Of a DNA stretch of 64,000 nt, positions 9,428 through 62,156 are shown one piece after another. The DNA comes from an uncultured bacterium (GTDB lineage: Bacteria; Zhuqueibacterota; QNDG01; DTFT01). A program made the position numbers and the translations under genes. Below the pieces are notes generated by a model, which saw only the letters and a list, made by a program, of their open reading frames with translations, was not told the DNA's origin and did no database searches. Location: NCBI GenBank assembly GCA_963736115.1, contig CAVTNR010000009.1, positions 1-64,000 of the forward strand. The letters are read 5' to 3'. Numbering within the stretch: position 1 is the stretch's first letter; every line of letters starts with the position of its first letter.

Positions 9428-12060
9428 GGCAGAACCTCCGCCTCGAACCGCGGCCGTTCCGGCACGGGCGCGCCCACGGGCGATTCCCGCCTGCGGGTGT
9501 CGAAATAGTCGGTCTGGAAAAAGCGGTCCCGCTCCTGGTCGTCCTTTTTCTGCAGATCGGCCTTCATCTGCCGTTCGATCTGCTCGACGTCCTGCAGAAG
9601 GGCCGCAATTCGCCGGCTCAGCTCCTCCCGCTTGACACGGTGGACCTCGTCGATCTGCCGGATCATGGACGCAATCTCGGTCATGCGGCCGTCAATCTCG
9701 CTGATGCGGGAGAAATTGATGTTGCTGATGCCGTATTCGCTGAAATTGGCCCAACGGTCGATCTCGACCGCGAAGGGCTGGGGCCGGTTCTCCCGCAGCC
9801 ACACTTCGTACTGGTTGAGCCGCAGGCCGTAATCATCGAGCTCGTCCCGCCGAATCTCCATGCGGATACGGATGGACATCGGATCGCCGGACCCGGACCG
9901 GACGGACAGGCGGTCGATTCCGGCGATGGACTCGGCCGTAACGCGCTTTTCCTCGAGCACATCGGACAGGAGCGTGTCGAACAGGTAACGGAGATAGACG
10001 GACATTCCCATGCGCCGGATCATGGGATCCTGGTCGCCGAGCCTGTCCGAGGACTTCCGGTTCCGCGTCTGCAGGGCCTGAATCGCGCCGCCGCGCAGCT
10101 TTCGGATTCGGTCCAGGGTCATCCAGTTCCGGCGGTCCTGGGCGCGGGCCTCGAGGCTGTCGAGCACGCCGATTTTCCGGTCGAGCGCGTCGGTCGCCAC
10201 ATCCAGACGGCCGTCCCCGGCGCCGGGAGCCGGATCGTCCGTCGGTCCGGCCGGCACTTCACTCAGGAACCGGGAGATCCGGTTCGCTTCGGCGAACAGC
10301 GTCCGGTTCCGAGCGTTTTCCAGCGAGTCGGCGGAGGCGGCCGGAAGCGAAGCGGCCGGCCGATTGCCGACGAGCCGCACGCGCTCCATGTCCCGGAGCG
10401 CTTCGTCCGACTGCCCCAGAAGCTCCTTTGACCGCGCGGCGAGCACCTGGGCCTCGTACTGGTAGCCGGAAAAAAGCGTCTGCGTCAGCAGAGTCTCGGT
10501 GTTGCGCAGGGCTTCAACCGGCCGGCCGGAGCGGTACGCGCTCCAGGCCCGGGCCAGCAGTGTCAGGTCGTCCTTCTGAAAATCGTCATCCACCTGATTG
10601 AACAGCGTGATCGCCCGCCGGTTTTCGCCGCGCTCGTAGTAGATCAGCCCCAGCTTCAGCCGCGCATTGTTCCGGATCCGCCGGAGCACGGGGTCGCGCT
10701 CCTGATTCGACGGTCCGGACACGAGGCGGTAATACACGGCCATCGCGGAATCGTCGTTGTTCAGGTTCGAATGACACGCGGCGGACAGATACCGCGCGGG
10801 GTACGCGTACGCGGTGCCGGCCGGAACCCGCGCCAGCGCGGACAGCGCGTCCCGGAAGGCGCCGCGGTTGAAGGCCGCCAGTCCGGCGACATAGGAGGCC
10901 ACGCCAAACGGCTCGTCTTCGAGCCGGTTCCGGACGGTCAGCAGACGGTCGTACGTTTCCTGGAGCGAATCGACGCTGCCGTACGCGTACTGGATGAAGA
11001 GCTTCTTGGCCAGCGCCTTGGCGGTGTACGGGGAGAGGGGATACCGACCGGCGAGGCGTTCGCCGGTCCGGAGCGCCTCATCCAGATAATTGAGCGCGAA
11101 GGACGCTTCGGCCGCATAGTAAAGCACGTCGTCCAGTATCGGGACGCCTGGGTACGTCTCGATCACGTCGCGAAGCAGGAGACGGGACAGGACGAAATCG
11201 CCGGCCGCATAGGCCTGAAGAGCCTCGCGCAGGTCCCGCCGGAACATGCGGTCCGCCTCCTCCTGGGTCGCGGTCTTCAGCAGTTTGGTCCGGATCAGTT
11301 CCGTCCGCGTCTGCCGGAGCTTGAATTCGAGCAGGCTGTTGTATTTCCATTGGTCCAGCAGGGTTTCGGCGAGTTCAGGCATCGCCGTTCCGGAGAGGAC
11401 GGACTGCGGGGACGCGGCCTCCGTCCCGGCCGACGCAGGATCCGGTTCCGGCGGGGCTTCCCCTGTTTTCCGCGCGGAACCGGTGTCCGCGGAGGCGGTT
11501 GTTTCCACAGCCGCGGACTGCACCGCTCTTTCGAGTATGTCCCGAACTTTCCGGCGGAGGCCGGCCAGAATTTCAAGCGCGGAGAGATTGGCCCGCCGCC
11601 GGGCCGTGGATTCCAGCTTCGCGATCTCGTCAAAAAGAGACAGGACTTTTCCGACCTCTCCCGCATAAGCGTCCAGAAATAGCTGCCTGGACGAGGTCGC
11701 CGCCGGCAGGTCGAGCGCGCTCAGGTCCCGGCCCTGAGCCCTGCGGGCCTTGGCCTCCTCGAAGATGTTCCGTGACTGTACGAGAAGGGCCTTCTCCTTG
11801 GGGATCATGAGCCGGAGAAATTCCTCGTTCTTCAGCCTGAGGTAATAACGGACATCCGCAGGCCCCGCGGGATTTGCGGAAGGGCCGGCGTCCGCGCTTC
11901 CGGCCGCGGCCGGAAGCGCGCATACCGCAAGCGCCCATAAGAGACCGGCAAGGGTCGGACGAACCGTCGGCCCGAAGGCAGACGGATTTCGTCCAGCAGG
12001 CCGGACGCGGCTAACCGGTAATGATACAGGGGACGGCCCGATGACGCTGAAAATATGCAC
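9424..12060 (-). CDS. Large secreted TPR/coiled-coil protein
   Basis: TPR-like repeats (DDVLYYAAEA, LKLGLIYYERG, LARAWSAYR); start uncertain (GTG 12060); stop overlaps the next ATG. Confidence 0.75.
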   Translation of the reverse strand: MHIFSVIGPSPVSLPVSRVRPAGRNPSAFGPTVRPTLAGLLWALAVCALPAAAGSADAGPSANPAGPADVRYYLRLKNEEFLRLMIPKEKALLVQSRNIFEEAKARRAQGRDLSALDLPAATSSRQLFLDAYAGEVGKVLSLFDEIAKLESTARRRANLSALEILAGLRRKVRDILERAVQSAAVETTASADTGSARKTGEAPPEPDPASAGTEAASPQSVLSGTAMPELAETLLDQWKYNSLLEFKLRQTRTELIRTKLLKTATQEEADRMFRRDLREALQAYAAGDFVLSRLLLRDVIETYPGVPILDDVLYYAAEASFALNYLDEALRTGERLAGRYPLSPYTAKALAKKLFIQYAYGSVDSLQETYDRLLTVRNRLEDEPFGVASYVAGLAAFNRGAFRDALSALARVPAGTAYAYPARYLSAACHSNLNNDDSAMAVYYRLVSGPSNQERDPVLRRIRNNARLKLGLIYYERGENRRAITLFNQVDDDFQKDDLTLLARAWSAYRSGRPVEALRNTETLLTQTLFSGYQYEAQVLAARSKELLGQSDEALRDMERVRLVGNRPAASLPAASADSLENARNRTLFAEANRISRFLSEVPAGPTDDPAPGAGDGRLDVATDALDRKIGVLDSLEARAQDRRNWMTLDRIRKLRGGAIQALQTRNRKSSDRLGDQDPMIRRMGMSVYLRYLFDTLLSDVLEEKRVTAESIAGIDRLSVRSGSGDPMSIRIRMEIRRDELDDYGLRLNQYEVWLRENRPQPFAVEIDRWANFSEYGISNINFSRISEIDGRMTEIASMIRQIDEVHRVKREELSRRIAALLQDVEQIERQMKADLQKKDDQERDRFFQTDYFDTRRRESPVGAPVPERPRFEAEVLP

Positions 12061-20698: not shown

Positions 20699-20926
20699 GG
20701 TTCGGGTCCGGTCCCGGGGAAAGGGCTCCCCGGGCGCGTTCGATCGGGCCGCCGGAACCCCGCCGCTGATCCGAGGCCGCCGGATCCGTCGTCTTCAGCG
20801 GGTTTTCGACTGCCGCGACGGGTTCATCTCAGGGTCCGGTCGGAGGCTGGCGCGTCTCCGCGCATGAGGGACCTCCGATTTCGGCGAAGGCTTTCGGCGG
20901 GCCTCCGGTTCGGGTCTTAAAACCCA

Positions 20927-21118: not shown

Positions 21119-21254
21119 CTCCGTCACCTCCCTGGCAAAAATCCGCCCGCCGGGTACGGGTTGTGCCCGGTCCCCGGCTGACAGTCATGCATGGCCGGAA
21201 CCCGGGCGTATCGGCCCGGTCCGGGGATTACAGGCGCCGGTCCGTCCGGTCCGT

Positions 21255-22505: not shown

Positions 22506-22919
22506 TTAAACCTCCTCAACCCCGGGGGTTTTCCTGGATGCGGCGCCGTCCGATTCCGCTGCGGGGCTCGCGCCTTCCGCGGGTTTCTCCGGGGATTGAA
22601 CTTTCTGTTCTTCGGCCGCTTTCAAAGCCGCCTTGGGCATCACCACGGAGAGAAACCGGATCACCACGTCGTCGAGCCTGAAGGAACGGTTCAGTTCCTG
22701 GCAGAGCGGGCCCTCACCTTCGAAGCGGATGTACACGTAGAAACCGTACTGCTTCTTGGCGATTTCATAAGTCAGCCGCCGCTTGCCCCAGCGCTCGACC
22801 ACGTGAATCTTGCCGCCGTTTTTTTCGATCAGCTGAACGGTCTTGTTGATCGTGGCTTCGATCTGCTCGTTGGGTAAATGCGAGTCTGCGATGAAAGTGG
22901 TTTCGTATTGCCTGACCAT
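22506..22919 (-). CDS. rpsF: 30S ribosomal protein S6
   Basis: YETTFI, WGKRRLTYEI. Confidence 0.96.
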   Translation of the reverse strand: MVRQYETTFIADSHLPNEQIEATINKTVQLIEKNGGKIHVVERWGKRRLTYEIAKKQYGFYVYIRFEGEGPLCQELNRSFRLDDVVIRFLSVVMPKAALKAAEEQKVQSPEKPAEGASPAAESDGAASRKTPGVEEV

Positions 22920-22975
22920 GCGTCACCTCCCTTCGGTCATTGGGTCCTCCCGCACGCGGGGGAGGACAGGGATTG
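22920..22975 (-). ncRNA. S6:S18 ribosomal protein leader (candidate)
   Basis: TCCCT/AGGGA stem overlapping the SD, inner stem GTCCTCCC/GGGAGGAC and a CC-containing bulge directly upstream of rpsF. Confidence 0.65.
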
Positions 22976-23024
22976 TGAGAGCGTCCGCGCCGCCCGGCCA
23001 GTGAGGGCTGAGCGGAAACGGTCG

Positions 23025-23594
23025 TTATTCGGAATTGCCGCGGTTGTATCGGTTCATGGCCCACTCGAATCCGTTCTCGGCCGCCGCGATCAGGGCGTCC
23101 GCGCCGTCTTCGACCAGGGTATTCACCGCGGTCTGTTCCTTTCTCGGAAATCGCGAAAGAACGTAATCGACTGTGTCGGCGCCGGGCCGGAGCCCGATTC
23201 CCATGCGGAGGCGGCCGAAATCCGACGTCCCCAGGGCCTGAATCACCGATGCAAGTCCGTTGTGGCCCCCGTCGCTTCCTTTCGGCCGCAACCGGAGCAT
23301 GCCGAGCGGAAGGTTGAAATCGTCACAGACCACAATCAGCCCCGAAAGCGGCACCTCGTAGCGCCGGACCGCGTCCTGCACGGCGGCGCCGCTCCGGTTC
23401 ATGAAGGTGGACGGCTTGACCAGCAGGATCTTCCCGCCCGAAACCTTCGTCTGAAAAAAATCGTACGGCCCGAAACCGGGCTTGAAGCGGCCGTCCCACC
23501 GTTCGGCCAAGCGGTCCAGAACCATGAATCCGAGGTTATGGCGCGTCTTCTCGTACGTCTTCCCCGGATTACCGAGGCCCACGAACAGGTGCAC
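23025..23594 (-). CDS. pth: Peptidyl-tRNA hydrolase
   Basis: VGLGNPG, TRHNLGF, KPSTFMNRSG, GGHNGL. Confidence 0.96.
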   Translation of the reverse strand: MHLFVGLGNPGKTYEKTRHNLGFMVLDRLAERWDGRFKPGFGPYDFFQTKVSGGKILLVKPSTFMNRSGAAVQDAVRRYEVPLSGLIVVCDDFNLPLGMLRLRPKGSDGGHNGLASVIQALGTSDFGRLRMGIGLRPGADTVDYVLSRFPRKEQTAVNTLVEDGADALIAAAENGFEWAMNRYNRGNSE

Positions 23595-23624
23595 AGGATT
23601 TCCTCCCGGCGTCGGAACGCCGGG

Positions 23625-24380
23625 CTATTTCTTCGATTCCTTGCCCTTGGCTGCCGGGGCTTCCTTGCCCTTGGCCGCCGGGGCTTCCTTGCCCTTGGCC
23701 GCCGGGGCTTCCTTGCCCTTCGCGTCCTTGGACTCCTTGCCGTCCTTCGCGCCTTCGGCCGCTTCGGGCTTCGCAACCGCGCCTTCCGCGCCTTCCACGG
23801 TCGCTGCGGCCGCGGTCTCGGTATCGGACTTCACGACCTTCGGCTGGACCACATTGGCCACAACCTGACGGGTGTCCGTGATGAACCGGAACTTGCCCGC
23901 AACGGCCGTTTCCAGCGTGATGGTGTCGCCGATCTCCAGATGGTCCACCGCGAACTCGACGTGCTCGGGCAGGTCGAGCGGGAGGCCTTCGACTTCCACC
24001 ATCCGGAGCAGCTGCTCCAGAACGCCGCCGTTCTTGACGCCGGCCGGCGATCCTTTCAGGACGATGGGAACCGAGAGACGGACCTTTTCGGTCAGTGAAA
24101 TGCCCATCAGGTCGACGTGCACCAGCGCGTCCGAGACGGGATCCCGCTGGATGCCGCGGATAATGGATTTCCGGATCGTGCCGTCCGGAAAGATCACGTC
24201 CATGATGTTGGCTTCCCGGTGGAGTACGGCCGTAAACTCCCGTGCGTCCACGGACAGCGGAACGGTGGTTTCGTTGCGCGCATAGAACACGGCGGGCACC
24301 CGCCCCGCGTGTCTCAGGGTCTTGGCGATCTGGTGGCCCGTCTTCTCGCGAGCCGCCACGTGCAGTTGAACTTCCGGCAT
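23625..24380 (-). CDS. rplY: 50S ribosomal protein L25/Ctc
   Basis: GRVPAVFY, IQRDPV, HVDL; prs-rplY-pth synteny. Confidence 0.92.
   Translation of the reverse strand: MPEVQLHVAAREKTGHQIAKTLRHAGRVPAVFYARNETTVPLSVDAREFTAVLHREANIMDVIFPDGTIRKSIIRGIQRDPVSDALVHVDLMGISLTEKVRLSVPIVLKGSPAGVKNGGVLEQLLRMVEVEGLPLDLPEHVEFAVDHLEIGDTITLETAVAGKFRFITDTRQVVANVVQPKVVKSDTETAAAATVEGAEGAVAKPEAAEGAKDGKESKDAKGKEAPAAKGKEAPAAKGKEAPAAKGKESKK
23638..23720 (-). repeat. 24-bp in-frame tandem repeat (AKGKEAPA) in the rplY tail
   Basis: cttgcccttggc(c/t)gccggggcttc x3 plus a partial unit. Confidence 0.9.
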
Positions 24381-24401: not shown

Positions 24402-25331
24402 CTAAGTAGGGTCAAACAGTGAACTGATCGATTCCTCGTTGTGGATCCGCTTGATCGCCTCTCCGAAAAGGGCGCCCGCAGAAAGCACCCGGATTTTCCC
24501 GTCGAGTTTTTCATGCGGGATATACAGCGTGTCCGAAACGACCACGGCCGACATCGGCGACGCCTCGATGGCCTGCGGCGAACGGCCCGACAGGATCGCG
24601 TGCGTGCAGGCCGCGAGGACGCGCTTGGCCCCGGATTCCTTGACCAGGCTGGCGGCGGCGCAGAGCGTCCCCGCCGTGTCGATCATGTCGTCGAACAGGA
24701 CCACGTCCCTTCCGGTCACGCTCCCGATCAGCGTGACCGAATCGACCGAGTTGGGTCCGGTCCGCTTTTTGTCGACGATGGCGATGTCCGTGCCCAGCCG
24801 GTTGGCGTAGGCGCGCGCCCGCTTCACGCTCCCGATGTCCGGGCACACCACCACCGGATTCTCGAGCGCCTGGGACTTGATGAAATCCACGAAAATGGCC
24901 GACGAATACAGGTGATCGAACGGGATGTCGAAGAAACCCTGTATCGAAGGCGAATGCAGGTCCATGGTCAGGACGCGGTCCGTGCCCGCCTTGGACAGCA
25001 TGTTCGCGACGAGCTTGGCGGACAGCGCCACCCGGGGCTGATCCTTGCGGTCCTGGCGGGCATATCCGAAATACGGAATGACGGCCGTGATCCGCTTGGC
25101 CGACGCGCGGCTGGCCGCGTCGATCATCAGCAGCAGTTCCATCAGGTTGTCGCCCGGCGCGCACGTCGGCTGGACGATGAAAACGTCGGCACCCCTGATG
25201 TTCTCGTTGTATTTAACCGCGATCTCGCCGTCGCTGAAACGACTGATTTCAGCGTCTCCCAGCGAGACGTTCAGATAGGCCGCGATCTTCTCCGCCAACG
25301 GCCGGTTGGCGTTGCACGTAAACAGCTTCAT
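24402..25331 (-). CDS. prs: Ribose-phosphate pyrophosphokinase
   Basis: FSDGE, PYFGYARQDRK, DLHS, DDMIDTAGT. Confidence 0.97.
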   Translation of the reverse strand: MKLFTCNANRPLAEKIAAYLNVSLGDAEISRFSDGEIAVKYNENIRGADVFIVQPTCAPGDNLMELLLMIDAASRASAKRITAVIPYFGYARQDRKDQPRVALSAKLVANMLSKAGTDRVLTMDLHSPSIQGFFDIPFDHLYSSAIFVDFIKSQALENPVVVCPDIGSVKRARAYANRLGTDIAIVDKKRTGPNSVDSVTLIGSVTGRDVVLFDDMIDTAGTLCAAASLVKESGAKRVLAACTHAILSGRSPQAIEASPMSAVVVSDTLYIPHEKLDGKIRVLSAGALFGEAIKRIHNEESISSLFDPT

Positions 25332-25395
25332 GCGTCACTCACTTGATGATGTCGCGACCATCCCCCGCACCGGGACTCCGGCTGGTGGATCCGTT

Positions 25396-25470
25396 TGGCT
25401 GGGGCGGAAGGATTCGAACCCTCGGATGCGGGGACCAAAACCCCGTGCCTTTCCACTTGGCGACGCCCCA
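25396..25470 (-). tRNA. tRNA-Gln(TTG)
   Basis: TGGGGCGTCGCCAAGTGGAAAGGCACGGGGTTTTGGTCCCCG...GGTTCGAATCCTTCCGCCCCAGCCA cloverleaf with encoded CCA. Confidence 0.96.
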
Positions 25471-25534
25471 GAGTGATGCCCGCGGGAGGCGGCCTCCGTC
25501 GGAAAACCGGAAAATGCGATGCGTCGGGATTAAA

Positions 25535-25826
25535 TTGAATCTCCCCGCCGCCCGCTGCGCGGGACCAAGCTATTATATGCCTTCTGGTTGAAGGCAAGCG
25601 GCGGAGAATCTTCTATCTGTAGAGAAGAGACATCCGATATTCGCTCGCTTGCCCCGCGGCCCGCTACGCGGGATCAATCCATTATATGCCTTCTTATTGA
25701 AGACAAGCCGCGGGCCTTCAATAATGAAATAATCCGATAGCTTGGTCCGGCGAAGTCTTCAATAACCGGCATCTGCAGATTGATCCCGCATCGCGGGACC
25801 GGGGAATGCGCTCGCTGTCAGATTCA
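25535..25826. mobile_element. Two-hairpin non-autonomous element (IS200/IS605-end-like) carrying four nested mini-elements
   Basis: Backbone aligns to the uninterrupted copy at 52525-52640; inserts at 25551-25594, 25660-25703 and 25715-25802 (the last containing 25756-25798). Confidence 0.75.
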
Positions 25827-26102
25827 GTTGGACCCGGGAGCCGAATTCCGGCCGACTTCCTCCCAGTACTTGTCCAGGACGACCTTTTCAAGCCGGGTTC
25901 GGAATTCGCTCGTAATGGGGTGGGCGATGTCTCGGAACGAGCCGTCTCTCTGCTTCCGGCTGGGCATGGCGATGAAGTAGCGGCCGATATGTTCAATGAT
26001 CTTCAACCCCCTCACCACGAAGAGATCATCGATCACGATATTGGCAAAAGCCTTGAGCTTTTCATCGTCCATCAGGGATACGGAGACTTCGGTGATTTCC
26101 AT
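25824..26102 (-). CDS. spoVG: SpoVG family protein
   Basis: MEITEV...LKAFANI...VVRGLKII...FIAMPSRK...FRDIAHPI. Confidence 0.95.
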   Translation of the reverse strand: MEITEVSVSLMDDEKLKAFANIVIDDLFVVRGLKIIEHIGRYFIAMPSRKQRDGSFRDIAHPITSEFRTRLEKVVLDKYWEEVGRNSAPGSN

Positions 26103-30524: not shown

Positions 30525-30658
30525 GTCCGAAAGCCTCGCCTTCCCGTCCCGTCCCGCTACGCGGGACCAAGCAACAGATGCCGGCTATTGAAGGCTACGC
30601 GGGACCAATCGACAGATTCCCGCCATTGAAGGGCTTCGCAGGACTCGGCATTTCGGAC
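30525..30658. repeat. Palindrome containing two nested mini-elements
   Basis: Outer GTCCGAAA...TTTCGGAC; mini-element 30552-30594 interrupts the hairpin of a second copy ending near 30632. Confidence 0.75.
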
Positions 30659-39573: not shown

Positions 39574-39757
39574 TAGTCATTCTGGTTCCCGTTTTTCTGG
39601 ATGATCGGAAATTGGGCTTCTGGCCGCTCCGACGGGTCTGATTCCCCGCCGCTTGCCTTCAACCAGAAGGCAAATAATAGCTTGGTCCCGCGAAGCGGGC
39701 GGCGTCCATCATCCAAGTTTCTTGTGATACCCCGCTGCTTGCGGCGGGGTCCTTCAA
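39574..39757 (-). mobile_element. Two-hairpin IS200/IS605-end-like element with one mini-element insert (39656-39699)
   Basis: Minus strand begins TTGAAGGACCCCGCCGCAAGCAGCGGGGTATC; second hairpin is interrupted at G^CAAG; left boundary approximate. Confidence 0.6.
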
Positions 39758-39794
39758 CCCCATGGACCAAACCCGCAGACCGGGAGGGGAACGC

Positions 39795-52524: not shown

Positions 52525-52640
52525 TTGAAGCTCCCCGCGGCAAGCCGCGGGGAATCTTCTATCTGTAGTGAAGAAAATATATTATATTCGCTCGCTTACC
52601 CCGCCGCAAGCGGCGGGGAATGCGCGAGCGATCAGATTCA
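52525..52640. mobile_element. Uninterrupted 116-bp two-hairpin non-autonomous element (IS200/IS605-end-like)
   Basis: TTGAAGCTCCCCGCGGCAAGCCGCGGGGAATC...CCCCGCCGCAAGCGGCGGGGAATGCG...GATTCA; homologous to the 25535-25826 backbone. Confidence 0.75.
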
Positions 52641-57515: not shown

Positions 57516-59654
57516 TCACTTCACCACCGCGATCTTCCTTGACGCCGTGAACCCCTCCGCCTCCATGCGAACGACGTAAACCCCGGACGCCAGGCCGGAC
57601 GCGTCGAAGCGGATCGAATGATTTCCGGCGGCGTAACGTCCATCCGTGATCGCGCGCACCGTCCGGCCGGTCATATCCGTCATGTGTAGCCGGACACGGC
57701 CAGTTCCGGCGGCCTCGAACCGGATTGTCGTGTAAGGATTGAAGGGATTGGGATAATTCTGCTCCAGTGAAAACCGGAGAGGCGCAACCGTCCCCGCGTC
57801 CGCTCGCACCGCGTCCGGCTCCTGAAAACGGATAACCCAAAAACCGGTCGTTTCATCGCAGAGATAGACAAGCCCGTCGTGCACGCACACGCCGGCAGAA
57901 CTCTCGCCCGCGAGATAATATCCTGACTCGACAGGATGGCCGGGATCGGACACATCGATCACACGGAGGCCACTGTTGTCCTCCGCGAGGTACGCGAACG
58001 ATCCTTCCACCCACACCCGATAGGCGGATTCCCGGGTATTGAAAAATCCGATCTCCAGAGGAGAGCCGGGATTGCTTACGTCCACGATCCACATTCCGTT
58101 CTCATCCGCGACATAGGCCGTATGATTCAGGACCGCAATCCCGGAAACCCAGTCCGGGGGCTTGAAGAATCCGGCCTGCACCGGATGAGCGGGATCGGAG
58201 ACGTCGATGATGCGTAATCCTTCGTTCCCGGCCGCAACATATGCGATCGTTCCCTCCACCGCAACATCCCGCGTTTCCCCCCCGGTCTCGAGAAAGCCGA
58301 TTTCCACGGGAGCCGCGGGATCCGAAACATCGGCAATTCTCAATCCTTTGTTATAATCCGCGATAAATGCGTATTGGCCTTTGATTGCGACGCCCCAAGC
58401 AGATCCGGGAGTGGCCAGCAATGCCACGGCAGCCGGTGATGCGGGATCTGCGATATCCACGATTTGCAGGCCGAAACCGTTTCGCGCGACATACGCGTAA
58501 TTCCCCGCAACCGCCACGTCCAGCGCCCAGATGCCCTCAAAACGCCCGACTTCGACCGGATGTCCGGGATCGGCCATGTCGAAAATCCGGAGACCGTCCA
58601 GCCCGTTGGCCAGACAGGCGATGGAACCGGCGAAAGCCATGTCAAACGAGCCGCCGGCCGCTTGCCGTCCGATTGACGCGGGATTCGCCGGATCGGACAC
58701 ATCGAATGCATAGAGGCCTCCCTCATCCACGCTCAAATAGGCCTTGCCCGCGGCCACGGAAACCCGGCTCACATTTCCGGTCGGGCGAATACTTTTAATG
58801 AAGGCCGGATGGGCCGGATCCGAAAAATCGATGATGTTCAGTCCGTTCGAGGCGTTCGCCGCATAAACCGTCTGACCGTCGATGTCCATGCCGTAACAGC
58901 CGCTTCCTCCCGAGTAAACGCCTAATTCAAAAGGATGAGTAGGATCTGTTATATCCACGGCACGCGAGTATCCCGATACGTCCACCAGAAAGGCGGTATT
59001 CCCGCTCACCCGCACTCCGGACACGTTTGTGCCGGTGGCGAAAACACCGACCTTCATGGGATTCCATGGATCCGAAACATCAACAATGCTCAGGCCGTTC
59101 ATTAATTCGGCCAGAAATGCGGTCGTACCGACGACCGCAACGTCCTCCACGCTTGCGGACGTCGGTGCGCGGCAAAGCACATCCGGATTCGAAGGATCCG
59201 AAACGTCGACAATGACGAGCCCGTTCCCGCCGCAGGCCGCATATAGATGCGTCCCGCTTATCGCCAGATTCGTGCACCAGGCATTGAGATCCAATTCTGC
59301 GCGGAAGGCCGGAGCCGACGGGTCGGACAGGTCCAGGATGTGCAGGAACCCGCTTTCATCCATCAGATAACAATCGGTTCCCTGCACGCCGAGTGCCAGA
59401 ATTCCCGCAGAAAGATGCGCCTCCGCCAGATGGACGGGAAGAGCGGTGTCCGAATAATCGACCATGCGGAGCACGCCCCCGTCCCCGAAATACACGGTAT
59501 CCCCGGAGGCGGCGATCGCGTTGCATGGGCCGTGCGCCCAGCGTCCGACGGGTGTGCAGTTCAGGCTTTCCTGTGCGACAACCACCGCTGTGGACAGGCT
59601 CATCCAGGCTGCCCCGAATAAAACGGATGCAGTATGAAGAATTCGTGTTCTCAT
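57516..59654 (-). CDS. Secreted LVIVD-repeat protein with T9SS-like C-terminal sorting domain
   Basis: More than 10 GLxIvDvSDP repeats; LEQNYPNPFNP CTD; SD GGAGGAGG. Confidence 0.9.
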   Translation of the reverse strand: MRTRILHTASVLFGAAWMSLSTAVVVAQESLNCTPVGRWAHGPCNAIAASGDTVYFGDGGVLRMVDYSDTALPVHLAEAHLSAGILALGVQGTDCYLMDESGFLHILDLSDPSAPAFRAELDLNAWCTNLAISGTHLYAACGGNGLVIVDVSDPSNPDVLCRAPTSASVEDVAVVGTTAFLAELMNGLSIVDVSDPWNPMKVGVFATGTNVSGVRVSGNTAFLVDVSGYSRAVDITDPTHPFELGVYSGGSGCYGMDIDGQTVYAANASNGLNIIDFSDPAHPAFIKSIRPTGNVSRVSVAAGKAYLSVDEGGLYAFDVSDPANPASIGRQAAGGSFDMAFAGSIACLANGLDGLRIFDMADPGHPVEVGRFEGIWALDVAVAGNYAYVARNGFGLQIVDIADPASPAAVALLATPGSAWGVAIKGQYAFIADYNKGLRIADVSDPAAPVEIGFLETGGETRDVAVEGTIAYVAAGNEGLRIIDVSDPAHPVQAGFFKPPDWVSGIAVLNHTAYVADENGMWIVDVSNPGSPLEIGFFNTRESAYRVWVEGSFAYLAEDNSGLRVIDVSDPGHPVESGYYLAGESSAGVCVHDGLVYLCDETTGFWVIRFQEPDAVRADAGTVAPLRFSLEQNYPNPFNPYTTIRFEAAGTGRVRLHMTDMTGRTVRAITDGRYAAGNHSIRFDASGLASGVYVVRMEAEGFTASRKIAVVK

Positions 59655-59782: not shown

Positions 59783-62156
59783 TCACCTCACCACCGCCAT
59801 CTTCCTCGCAGCAGTGAACCCCTCCGCCTGCATGCGGACGACATATACCCCTGAGGCCAGACCGGACGCGTTGAAGCGGACCGAATGATTTCCGGCGGCG
59901 TAACGTCCATCCGTGATCGCGCGCACCGTCCGGCCGGTCATGTCCGTCACGTGCAGACGGACGCGGCTTTTCGCAGAGGTCTCGAAACGGATCGTCGTGT
60001 AAGGATTAAAGGGATTGGGATGGTTCGGAAACAGGCGGAATCCTGAAGGGTTTTCATTGAGCTGCCGCACGGCATTTGTGTCATCAACGCGCCAGGCATG
60101 AACCACGAGGCGACCTTCCGCCTCCCGTATGAATTCCACCGCGTACAAAATATGGTTTTCGGAATCGAACGTTGCGGAAAAAATCTCATGGTTGGCTCCG
60201 AAGAACAGATCTTCGGCGAGCCTGAGCGCCGCGTACGGTTGGGGTTCCCAGGGCTGGAGCGTTCCCGCGGCTACCGCGGCCAGGTCGTCCGGGTTGTAAA
60301 AAACGATCATGGGCTTCCGGTTGTGGCTGCGCCAGCCCTTTCCGTCCGGGTCCGTTTCCCAGAAATCCGGATAGGGCACATCAGCGATGACCCAGTCGTG
60401 TCGCATCCGCTCGCCGGCATACCCGTACCAGTTGGTGCCGAGCGCCTTGTTGCCCATCAGCGCCACTGCGCCCGAGCCGCCCGCCGACACCCACATCGCG
60501 GCCCGCCATTCATCCGCATGGTTGTACCCGTCGATCGAATTCGGAAAATGAACATTGTCCGAGGCTTCAACAGGACCGTACTGGAGAAGAGTTGTTGCCT
60601 GCAGAACGGATCCGGGCCCCGGAGGCGCGTTTCCGACTCCCGCGAATGCGTACAGAGTCGGCCCCAGACCGCTCAATCCTCCGTCCCTGCTCCGTCCGGA
60701 AACGAGGAACCGGCCCGAGACGTTCACCGACGCCCAGTCCGCAGGCAGGCTGAACAGCCAGTCTCCCGCTCCGGCGTCAGTTGGCGGTTCGTCACCAGAG
60801 CCGAGGTACCAGGCTCCGTGGACACCGCTTACAGAGAGATCGGACAATTCGCAGCAGGTGATGGAGGCGTGTTTCTCCCCGGTGACGGTATAATGAGTAA
60901 CTCCAGGCGCTGTAGAGCCGACCTTCCTCAGGAACCACCGCGAGCCCGGTCCGCCAAATGTCGACGAAATTCCATGCGTCTATGTTTGCGGGCCTGATGT
61001 TCTCAGGTTCCCGTAGAACGCGGGCGACCGGAAGTTCGGAGAGTGCGCGGGATCCGGAGACAACCGGAGCCGGAAGGCTCACCTCGCCGACCCATCCGGT
61101 TTCGGCCTGATTCAGATTCGTGACGAACAGGGACCCCGGCGTTCCGTCGGAGGAGGATCCTGAACCGCCGTCCCCATCCGGCCGGAAGGCGACTGCCTCG
61201 CCTCCCCAGGCGAATGTTTCCGGCAGGGTGAATGCGCCCAGATATTTGAAGACGTCCGGCCGCACCGGACCGTCTCCGGACAGGAACCCCGGAGTCCGGA
61301 TTTCAACAGGATCGGAAAGGCCGCTCTCGTTCCCGGCCGCGTCAAGGGCGGAAACCCGGAATGCGTAGGTCCGGTCCGGTTCCAGGAACACGCAGGTATC
61401 CTCGACGGATTGTGCGTATTGCTCCACCTCTCCGTCCATGTAAACAAGATACTCGACGGTCCCGGTGTTGTCCCCCGCCGCATTCCAAACCAGACGCACC
61501 TTGGAATGGGAAACAGCCGCGGCCGTCAATCCGGTCGGCGTTTCAGGCGCGGTCAGATCCGCGTCATCGAGCAGTTCAATCCTGTCGCAAACCAGAAAAG
61601 GTTTCTGAAAGGTGGATCCCCATTCTACCGCCAGGTTGATATTGACCAGGGACCAGTTGCCGTCCGTTTTGTGAACCCCGGAATTTTCAATATTATAGAC
61701 AGTCTTCGCGGTTCCATGCGGCTGAATTTCGGTGTATGTGAACCGATAATCCGTGAACCGTCGCATGGTGTACCAGTTTCCGCCCGGCGCCGTTTCAGAC
61801 GGTTCGTCCGGGTCCGTGAAGCTGATGCGCGAGGTGAACGAAACGGTTTCATCCGAATCGTTGAACCAGGTCACAACGATTCTTGCGCCCTTATTGAAAG
61901 GCCGCGGCGTCCCCCGGACTCCTCGAAAATCGCCGTATTCCCCGGGGTCGGTCACTACCCGCACTCCCCCGCCTCCGACGGCGGTATGGGACAGATTGGC
62001 GGATATTATAGGGGTGTTCCATCCGGCCAGACCGTAGACATTCGCGGCCGCGGAAGACCCGAAATCGACGAGTGTGACACCGAAGGACGCGTGCGTCCCC
62101 ATCGCGCAGAGCATGACGATCGAGACGGACAGAAAACGACGGACGCGAGCGATCAT
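59783..62156 (-). CDS. Secreted protein with FN3 domain and T9SS-like CTD, frameshift near 60899
   Basis: Signal peptide; FN3 (DLTAPETPTGL...DAAGNES); removing one base joins SAWS-THYTVTGEKHASITCC to the downstream ORF ending in an NHPNPFNP CTD. Confidence 0.8.

Follow-up and report, generated by a model that had tools for sequence, protein, structure and literature searches.

A mini-element of about 44 nucleotides with mutually pairing ends that inserts into hairpins in an uncultured bacterium of the Zhuqueibacterota

How does a DNA unit of little more than 40 nucleotides come to lie inside the hairpins of other repeats, and even inside the hairpins of its own copies? This question is raised by a stretch of 64,000 nucleotides from an uncultured bacterium of the Zhuqueibacterota (GenBank assembly GCA_963736115.1, contig CAVTNR010000009.1, positions 1 to 64,000; the whole stretch is called the window in the following). 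An earlier reading of this DNA from the sequence alone, here referred to as the sequence-only reading, had pointed to seven copies of a hairpin-targeting mini-element in the window, some of them nested within others. We describe this mini-element and its relatives here, together with their landing sites, the pairing of their ends and the mechanism that might move them.

The unit is 42–46 nt long, far below the size of ordinary transposons. A terminal hairpin of 5 bp, CCCGC-NNN-GCGGG, starts at base 1 and is followed by the block AYCAAKC, by 15–18 variable nucleotides of free sequence and by the closing motif TTGAAGR. In its strict form, CCCGCNNNGCGGGAYCAAKC-N12-22-TTGAAG, this pattern has five exact matches in the window (25551-93+, 25660-702+, 25757-97-, 30553-93+ and 39657-99-) and none in any of 100 dinucleotide-preserving shuffles of it. 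Two further copies (bodies 25715-25755 on the minus and 30595-30632 on the plus strand) have no contiguous 5' arm, because a second copy sits within their hairpin. A covariance model built from 121 relatives and run on the 64-kb window returns the same seven copies and no other match, so that the number and the positions given by the sequence-only reading stand.

Relatives were gathered by a motif scan of a genome collection, which yielded at least 79 loci (designated by L numbers; L056 was left out as a duplicate of L032). Nearly all of them come from six metagenome-assembled genomes (MAGs) with the accession prefixes CAZNXX, JAFGAX, JAUCQC, JBDRSZ, CAZTZL and JBFZEN. All statistics on copies refer to about 1 Mb around pattern matches, among the matches listed. 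In 78 loci and the window (1.06 Mb), an anchored parser recognizes at least 168 copies, compared with 2 in reversed decoy sequence; 150 of the 168 possess their own 5' arm, and in the other 18 the arm is displaced by a nested copy. Removal of three rows from two unrelated MAGs and of 21 of the 165 others, whose post-hairpin block does not fit, leaves a filtered set of 144 copies, 114 of which lie outside greedily called open reading frames (ORFs), although such ORFs cover 91% of the DNA. MAG assembly may collapse or break repeats: the contig of L009 stops within an array, and masked runs occur in L023 and L051. Over a 20-kb stretch, the window is about 90–92% identical to L038 and L074, which therefore represent sister species.

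Does the mini-element move by itself, or is it carried along by the repeats in which it lies? In the window, these are the repeats host-1, host-2 and host-3 (Table 1). Comparison of the empty host-1 repeat at 52525-52638 with the filled one at 25535-25824 reveals clean insertions only, with no target duplication, as the sequence-only reading had maintained. Across 24 host-1 copies, the region of hairpin 1 is empty in 8 of 20 scorable cases and that of hairpin 2 in 4 of 21; a hairpin holds between zero and four units in varying combinations, and two host-1 copies are wholly empty. An orthologous host-2 repeat is filled in three slots in L045, in slot 1 only in L078 and in slot 2 only in the window; in the alignment with L045 and L078, the slot of the window copy is thus empty in L078, and the units found in slot 1 of L045 and L078 belong to different subfamilies (42 versus 44 nt; CCCGC versus CCGGC hairpin). 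Orthologous empty sites, which the sequence-only reading had called for, hence exist between the window, L038 and L074 as well as in the L045/L078 pair. One MAG, moreover, contains an identical 44-mer twice with unlike flanks, once in the loop of host-1 hairpin 2 and once head-to-tail in hairpin 1 of another copy, and no fewer than a dozen hairpins without relation to the host repeats also hold mini-elements. We consider it highly probable that the mini-element is independently mobile and targets hairpins.

These observations also bear on the reading that the units are fixed modules of host-1, host-2 and host-3 and immobile by themselves. The host repeats are mobile, as their orthologous empty sites demonstrate, and composites do recur as blocks: copies 3 and 4 of the window are found together in L019, L042 and L061 as well, and the same composite appears in L046. 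The association of subfamilies with targets, described below, is likewise partly as expected from passenger copying. Yet a single unit may be present or absent inside orthologous host copies, occupancy across the 24 host-1 copies is combinatorial, the same 44-mer lies in different contexts, and copies occupy a dozen or more unrelated hairpins. We give almost no credence to immobile units; as the sole explanation, passive passenger copying is excluded.

If the mini-element moves, where does it land? Among the 144 filtered copies, 47 sit in the loop of a hairpin resembling repetitive extragenic palindromes (REP; CCCCGCSG^CAAG, where ^ marks the junction), 27 at the 5' foot of such a REP-like hairpin in the opposite sense (ATTC^CCCGCSG) and 19 in the hairpin of another unit (CCCG^CNNNGCGGG), while 11 lie head-to-tail with another unit, 14 in a composite repeat seen in the MAGs JBDRSZ and CAZTZL and 26 in other targets. 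Since insertion also occurs into the hairpins of other copies, at a point one base before the loop, and at the 5' foot of a hairpin, it results in nesting and in head-to-tail arrays, respectively. It takes place in one orientation, into the 5' strand of hairpins: REP-like loops are read as CAAG 47 times and never as CTTG in the filtered set (once in the wider set). In 135 of 144 copies, a C follows the element directly.

In a fold test, each copy was removed in silico and its flanks were folded as DNA, with a minimal stem of 4 bp; all site calls are thus predictions. In 45 of 131 cases, the junction is predicted to lie in the loop of a hairpin, no more than 2 nt from the 5' arm, compared with 81 of 1500 control sites (non-coding sites preceding C), a class that the test understates, as neighboring copies were kept in the flanks. 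Among predicted loop sites, 45 of 51 junctions are nearer the 5' arm, compared with 108 of 232 controls. The tabulation in relatives thereby yields the enrichment at hairpin apices that had been proposed from the window, and together with the filled and empty orthologs and the target classes it bears out a discrete mini-element that prefers hairpins and nests within itself.

Other parts of the sequence-only reading need revision. It had placed six of the seven insertions at a G^C step at the top of a hairpin; this is correct for three copies at G^CAAG in REP-like loops and for two in the hairpins of other copies, whereas one copy lies at a hairpin foot and one in the loop of a palindrome. At the nested junctions, the step is not a bare G^C, for the inner copies carry an extra T (30552; 25798 on the minus strand), which makes the junction CCCG-T-CCCGC. 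The supposed degenerate G^CTTC insertion in the palindrome at 30525-30658 is not supported: the stretch 30543-30632 consists of CCCGT CCCGT CCCGC (30543-30557) and tandem 38-nt bodies, that is, of three CCCG arms and only two bodies. In L014, the same palindrome holds one copy, the uninterrupted counterpart of copy 6, in its apical loop; it is followed by G and has the same GCTTCGCGG to its right with no CCCG partner. The copy at 25715, regarded as an exception, belongs to the recurrent class at the 5' foot of REP-like hairpins. Finally, the notion that structure rather than sequence determines the target is supported by the enrichment in hairpins, but it is limited by the preference for a following C, by the near-exclusive use of CAAG, by target classes specific to subfamilies and by the 38 of 144 copies that lie at a hairpin foot or head-to-tail instead of at an apex.

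Subfamilies differ in the targets that they prefer. Of the 47 copies in REP-like loops, 42 belong to subfamilies A and D; 18 of the 19 within another unit's hairpin belong to subfamily B, and 13 of the 27 at REP-like feet to subfamily C; passenger copying must account for part of this pattern. We also considered the variable spacer as a guide to the target and rejected it, as there is no convincing complementarity between spacer and target and the passenger copying of composites confounds the comparison; the mutual information between element and flank columns reflects class structure only. The junctions themselves are asymmetric. While the 3' boundary is exact to the base in all 144 copies, the 5' boundary has zero or one extra pyrimidine: in subfamily B, 20 of 25 copies have a T in front of the core, and head-to-tail pairs are separated by one C in nine of nine cases. 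The base preceding copies with their own arm is C in 69, T in 31, G in 30 and A in 3 instances.

Insertions of this kind might conceivably arise with no dedicated enzyme, through host nicking of hairpins or replication stalling, followed by template switching, microhomology repair or gene conversion. SbcCD cuts at the 5' side of hairpin loops, precisely where many of the junctions are found, and copies in REP-like loops are flanked on both sides by homologous arms of 8 nt. The stacks of CCCGT with orphan arms (window 30543-30547; six in L009) resemble slippage, and no transposase was found in the scanned ORFs. What speaks against such a repair route is that identical or near-identical copies occur in contexts without common flank homology, that the 3' boundaries are base-exact throughout, that orientation is strictly one-sided both in the predicted loops and in the reading of CAAG, and that the covariation between the ends, to which we turn now, implies selection on a specific folded substrate. 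We consider a pure repair origin improbable.

The feature that sets this family apart from known tiny hairpin-associated repeats is the pairing of its two ends. Base 15 (the Y of GCGGGA-Y-C) and the last base (the R of TTGAAG-R) are C-G in 77, T-A in 63, T-G in 4 and C-A in none of the 144 copies (Fisher 1.6e-36). The 121 distinct sequences give the same picture (CG 63, UA 55, UG 3, unpaired 0); the covariation score of 0.228 is not attained by any of 500 shuffles, and slid controls stay at or below 0.073. The adjoining pair C16-G43 is constant. Compensatory changes are likewise seen in the hairpin, where pair 3-11 is CG in 104 and GC in 13 cases. Overall, 99.3% of all cells are paired. Because both states of the end pair occur within subfamilies A (23/10), B (10/17), D (8/21) and C (20/1), they must have switched several times separately. 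The extra 5' T, where present, is complementary to the invariant A14, so that the joined ends of one copy can form a stem G-R-(T)-CCCGC / GCGGG-A-Y-C of up to 8 bp across the junction. At natural head-to-tail junctions, the upstream R matches the downstream Y in only one of nine cases, and the constraint therefore acts within one copy. We conclude from the covariation that, at some stage, the two ends of each copy pair physically with one another. As a duplex of 44 bp is too stiff to close into a ring, this stage should be single-stranded, either as a small circle or as a fold in an unwound strand; judged by these sequence patterns, a single-stranded intermediate with paired ends appears fairly likely.

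Could the single strand be RNA? Mobility by way of a short folded transcript of the unit, or of a circle of RNA, that is reverse-transcribed into nicked hairpins would be compatible with the asymmetric junctions, exact at the 3' end and with zero or one extra base at the 5' end, and with the fact that all four non-Watson-Crick cases are G-T(U) wobbles. Reverse transcription would, however, leave other traces: there are no 5'-truncated copies among 168 and no A-tails, and no reverse transcriptase is encoded among the 525 ORFs scanned. Furthermore, 44 nt is too small for a known ribozyme, and no Rfam family matches the element even at E ≤ 1; the only Rfam match, at the gathering threshold in the window and at E ≤ 1 in 25300-26000, is a tRNA-Gln at 25396-25470. 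We thus deem an RNA route very improbable.

A different enzyme is suggested by the topology of the joined ends, which is like that of an integron cassette on a folded strand: the hairpin comes first, and the last bases complete the stem on circularization. In this scenario, an integron integrase or a tyrosine recombinase of the Xer type would act on the folded single-stranded junction hairpin of a gene-less mini-cassette, whose site is completed when the ends are joined and which would be exchanged into the 5' strand of a further hairpin. Such a recombinase would fit the observed end-to-end pairing, the head-to-tail arrays with their constant one-base spacer, the frequent insertion at 5' feet and the choice of structures, not long sequences, as targets; structure-dependent recognition of single strands and head-to-tail arrays are features of attC sites, too, and one integrase fragment was found (L073:25-417). 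The attC hairpin, however, is characterized by R and L boxes (RYYYAAC...GTTRRRY) and by extrahelical bases, whereas the alignment reveals neither evident boxes of this kind nor extrahelical bases in the junction stem GR(Y)CCCGC/GCGGGAYC. Moreover, mini-element copies are dispersed over 78 loci, with no array beside an integrase and no attI platform found in the DNA covered; they are 3- to 20-fold smaller than cassettes; and in their nested and loop insertions, near the apex, the cuts in donor and target fall at stem positions that do not correspond, unlike in a symmetric synapse. The L073 fragment resembles an ordinary chromosomal gene and lies 9.6 kb from any copy. On balance, a tyrosine recombinase seems to us a poor candidate.

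The reading that we prefer is that of a non-autonomous mobile DNA with a single-stranded active form, which is moved by a trans-acting hairpin nuclease-ligase, likeliest of the HUH class; for this statement as a whole, we estimate a probability of about 0.5. The active form would be a circle of 44–45 nt or an unwound strand folded so that both ends lie next to each other. A hairpin-binding nuclease-ligase acting in trans would cut after R44 and before C1, and the strand would then be rejoined into a hairpin that is exposed as a single strand. The likeliest enzyme would be an HUH Y1 protein of the TnpA(IS200/IS605)/RAYT kind. For IS200/IS605 and TnpA-REP, PMC8266576 describes a cleavage dinucleotide that is specified by complementary pairing with a guide adjacent to the hairpin; hairpin binding and, for IS200/IS605, single-stranded circles have likewise been described (PMC6006769, PMC8266576). 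The pairing of Y15C16 with G43R44 would fit this guide logic. By analogy, an HUH enzyme may thus move the mini-element, a tentative assignment that we rate at somewhat below even odds.

Several points weigh against the preferred mechanism, the first being the enzyme itself. A Pfam scan of 525 of the 553 ORFs of 100–480 aa detected no HUH, DDE, IS110, TnpB, transposase or reverse transcriptase domain; it covered 112 of the 140 ORFs in the batch of 370–480 aa, with 480 aa as the upper limit of length, in about 1 Mb around pattern matches. The only recombinase-like Pfam match is the truncated integrase of L073 mentioned above. All-against-all blastp of 854 greedy ORFs uncovered no transposase-like paralog family within a MAG, and a phmmer search of 11049 six-frame ORFs with E. 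coli RayT (from L080) reached no better E-value than 0.33. HUH genes flanked by the element's ends, which the sequence-only reading had led us to look for, did not come to light: five candidate ORFs have repeats on both sides, four of which were scanned with Pfam and gave nothing transposase-like (L009:8721, YchF; L070:4256, alcohol dehydrogenase; L049:4760 and L062:3593, no family), and the fifth (L007 9513-9968) was merged as redundant. In addition, the mini-element departs from known Y1 systems in having one hairpin instead of two, in its terminal instead of subterminal position, in a putative guide that lies 3' of the hairpin, and in the lack of a conserved 4-5-nt target and of a GT[AG]G tag. 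The 5' junction is variable by one base: among the copies in REP-like loops, 30 were parsed and 17 were not, and of the parsed ones 19 have no extra base, 9 a C and 2 a T. There is no overall strand bias with respect to GC skew (79/144). Class by class, 14 of 14 copies of the 'caaaagaa' class (JBDRSZ and CAZTZL), 20 of 27 of the REP-foot class and 17 of 47 of the REP-loop class lie on the locally G-rich strand; the counts of the two REP classes probably reflect the orientation of the host repeats and are inseparable from the direction of transcription. Lastly, 21 of the 165 detected rows had been dropped before the covariation was counted, and the copies are not independent: host repeats that bear mini-elements are themselves copied, and copy counts overstate the number of events.

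That no transposase was seen near 168 copies might also have a more radical reason, namely that none of a known kind exists. The mini-element would then be a self-synapsing hairpin cassette and the smallest kind of mobile DNA, a single-stranded circle of about 44 nt that carries nothing but its own recombination site, which would come into being only through the pairing of the ends. It would be cut and pasted into exposed hairpins by an enzyme of a class not so far connected with transposition or by a housekeeping enzyme that processes hairpins; we regard this as unlikely.

Returning to the preferred reading of a single-stranded element mobilized in trans, how does it compare with known systems? 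The mini-element works most like REP/REPIN sequences and IS200/IS605 derivatives, yet it fails their defining features. With the REP/REPIN-RAYT system, it has in common short, high-copy, intergenic and GC-rich hairpins confined to a lineage, which are thought to move as single strands by means of a single-copy enzyme in trans, and the host hairpins CCCCGCSGCAAGCSGCGGGG look REP-like themselves. A further possible parallel is a motif beside the hairpin that pairs with the cleavage dinucleotide, as described for TnpA-REP in PMC8266576. By contrast, no GTAG or GTGG is present in the mini-element alignment or its flanks; the hairpin is adjoined 5' by TTGAAG-N1-2, which occurs only across a junction or within a host repeat, and 3' by AYCAA. 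Whereas a REPIN is an inverted pair, the mini-element has a single 5-bp hairpin and is gained and lost as a single unit. Its ends are sharp to the nucleotide and complementary to one another, and both foreign hairpins and those of its own kind serve it as targets. Nor was a RAYT found in 1.06 Mb of about six genomes (525/553 ORFs with Pfam; phmmer in six frames).

In members of the IS200/IS605 family, hairpins lie subterminally at both ends and insertion takes place 3' of a fixed target of 4–5 nt; their derivatives are longer than 100 nt. The mini-element accommodates one terminal hairpin within 42–46 nt, and its target is mainly a hairpin plus one C, which is all that the flanks share. Like IS200/IS605 elements and their gene-less derivatives (PATEs and Nezha-type miniature inverted-repeat transposable elements, MITEs), it shows no target duplication and no terminal inverted repeats but hairpin ends. 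The parallel may extend to the single-stranded circle and to cleavage sites read by guide pairing, as set out in PMC6006769 and PMC8266576; in the mini-element, Y15-R44 and C16-G43 form pairs whose partner is located 3' of the hairpin, in a putative guide role. From classical MITEs, it differs in that its ends, CCCGC... and ...TTGAAGR, are not inverted repeats and in the absence of a target duplication.

The nearest precedent for small, nesting repeats with no enzyme of their own is found in the small dispersed repeats (SDRs) of the Nostocaceae. Elhai et al. (2008, Genome Res 18:1484) reportedly described mobile SDR families of 21–27 nt (SDR4-6), and SDR5 reportedly may insert into the HIP1 palindrome, according to a passage in a citing work. 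Given these families, the statement of the sequence-only reading that no element this small has been described was too strong. As far as the descriptions go, SDRs and mini-elements are alike in being very small and mobile, in lacking a known enzyme and, reportedly, in inserting into each other; SDRs are cyanobacterial, 21–27 nt long and unrelated in sequence. We know of no end-to-end covariation or terminal hairpin described for SDRs. Insertion sequences (IS) that target REP sequences are full-size, gene-carrying DDE elements with target duplications, whereas the insert considered here has 44 nt, no gene and no duplication. What such elements (IS1397 and others; references 41-42 of PMC3116915) reportedly share with it is that REP-like hairpins are preferred landing sites. 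In the literature searched, the core motifs had no match apart from one unrelated primer, and a search for small repeats that nest or target hairpins led only to papers on REP/RAYT, PATEs and stem-loop surveys.

The host repeats have histories of their own. The 114-nt host-1 repeat, with its left end TTGAAG-CT, its two REP-like hairpins CCCCGCSG-CAAG-CSGCGGGG and its right end hairpin-AATGCGCTCGCTGTCAGATT, is itself a mobile, MITE-like element: four distinct orthologous empty sites, in five pairwise comparisons, all read TT^C, where TT may belong to flank or element. These comparisons took in the window, L007 9309, L033/L057 2155 and L038 9761. The entire block 25535-25824 is such an insertion, as the orthologous site of L038 reads GGGATTGAATT^CAGTTGG and has no block. 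At the left end of host-1, the module order TTGAAG-NN-hairpin matches that of joined mini-element ends. A difference between L031 and L043 that resembled a footprint was set aside, as the match is non-collinear. The host-2 repeat, whose layout is GGGCGGCCAGAAGCCCG ... GGGCTTCTGGCCGCTCCGAC ... two hairpins ... TCCTTCAA, is present in one species and absent from another as well (L074 9899-10147 versus window 21140; L058 5587 versus L079). Its junction shows a short direct repeat, AATC or possibly TTCATCG, which hints at a different insertion mechanism.

In the JBDRSZ (L003, L005, L013, L020, L024, L026, L054, L063, L070, L076) and CAZTZL (L001, L029, L075) MAGs, which are more distant, the unit lies within a repeat of about 90 nt with the layout GTTCTTTTCTT-NN-GAAGAAAAGAACC[unit]CAAAAGAACCGGCCTTTTTGCC; its run of T suggests a terminator-like module. 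Yet another repeat family (GGTAGCCGCAACCTTCAGGTTGCG...) holds mini-elements in the loop GCSGCCTTT^YAGGCSGC at L051 5428-5641 and is absent from the orthologous site of L057. A nearly identical version of the host-3 palindrome with two nested copies occurs at L072 1923-2010, in a MAG from the same co-assembly that is labelled Leptospirales; no synteny with the window was detected outside the repeat, and the composite is either mobile or part of a mis-binned contig. Stacks of CCCGT before nested copies are found at window 30543-30552 (2), L009 9966-10000 (6, where the contig ends) and L023 about 10040-10057 (3), and L034 has one CCCGT fewer than the window at the same place; the surplus of arms over bodies looks like slippage of the 5-nt unit created by nesting. 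Three pattern matches outside the lineage were excluded from the counts, with about three chance matches expected in 596 Gb. One of them, in a Ramlibacter MAG (L036 2281-2323), sits in coding-like sequence and is probably due to chance; the other two, in a deltaproteobacterial MAG (L077; 5464 and 10008), have identical flanks and a wobble of T15 with a final G and may be distant relatives.

Table 1. Mini-element copies, host repeats and empty sites in the window (^ marks a junction).
Feature	Position	Strand	Description	Detection or relatives
Copy 1	25551..25594	+	44 nt, subfamily A, C15/G44; loop of host-1 hairpin 1, CCCCGCCG^...^CAAGCGGCGG; empty counterpart 52533-52552	exact pattern match, covariance model 58.7 bits
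Copy 2	25660..25703	+	44 nt, subfamily A, T15/A44; loop of host-1 hairpin 2, CCCCGCGG^...^CAAGCCGCGGG; empty counterpart 52599-52618	pattern match, covariance model
Copy 3, body (loop, 3' arm, spacer, TTGAAGG)	25715..25755	-	outer copy, 45 nt, subfamily C; hairpin variant CCGGC/GCCGG; at foot of host-1 hairpin 2, one extra base	
Copy 3, displaced 5' arm CCGG	25799..25802	-	complementary to body GCCGG; copy 4 intervenes	
Copy 4	25756..25798	-	subfamily B, 42-nt core 25756-25797 and extra 5' T at 25798; nested within copy 3 hairpin at CCGG^CTTC	pattern match
Copy 5	30553..30594	+	42 nt, subfamily B, extra T at 30552; nested within copy 6 hairpin at CCCG^CTAC	pattern match, covariance model
Copy 6, body	30595..30632	+	outer copy; 5' arm CCCG at 30548-30551; orphan CCCGT at 30543-30547	
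Copy 7	39656..39699	-	44 nt, subfamily A; loop of host-2 hairpin 1	pattern match, covariance model
Host-1 repeat with copies 1-4	25535..25824	+	begins TTGAAT-CT-hairpin 1; ends hairpin 2-AATGCGCTCGCTGTCAGATT	
Empty host-1 repeat	52525..52638	+	114 nt, two CCCCGCSGCAAGCSGCGGGG hairpins; reference empty site	
Host-2 repeat (ends approximate)	39600..39762	+	three slots: 1 (39636) and 3 (39741) empty, 2 = copy 7	
Host-3 repeat, palindromic	30525..30658	+	GTCCGAAAGCC...GGCATTTCGGAC; apical loop with copies 5 and 6	L014, L034, L072
Window-empty site	20820..20826	.	GACGGGTT^CATCTC	L038: host-1 repeat with five mini-elements here
Window-empty site	21138..21144	.	GGCAAAAATC^CGCC	L074: host-2 repeat with two mini-elements here

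The window contains other repeats besides. At 23637-23756, four to five tandem units of 24 nt, TTCCTTGCCCTTGGC(T/C)GCCGGGGC, lie within long ORFs on both strands; the ORF of 406 aa at 22878-24095, which holds them, has no Pfam match and may encode a low-complexity repeat protein. A segment of 244 nt is duplicated with 86% identity at 57516-57759 and 59783-60026, and periodic repeats of about 126 and 249 nt lie in between, at 57934-59226; the whole looks like a pair of repeat-domain genes, and a neighboring ORF, 59786-60847, carries a sorting domain of the type IX secretion system (T9SS). T9SS sorting domains, FlgD-Ig and PorV are among the Pfam matches of the ORFs scanned, and they may point to a lineage resembling the FCB group.

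If our reading of the mini-element is correct, it stands near the lower size limit of mobile DNA, and the minimal information for mobility would amount to one 5-bp hairpin, an end pairing of 2–3 bp and two short conserved motifs. It offers a concrete substrate for the question of how hairpin-specific single-strand nucleases choose their cut sites, and the pair Y15/R44 lends itself to compensatory mutation. Its behavior would account for the growth of REP-like repeats into clusters that are mosaic and nested, and similar reasoning may hold for clusters of the bacterial interspersed mosaic element (BIME) type and for the cyanobacterial SDRs, so far unexplained. Finally, by clean insertion into terminator or attenuator hairpins, elements of this kind could rewire gene expression in small steps.

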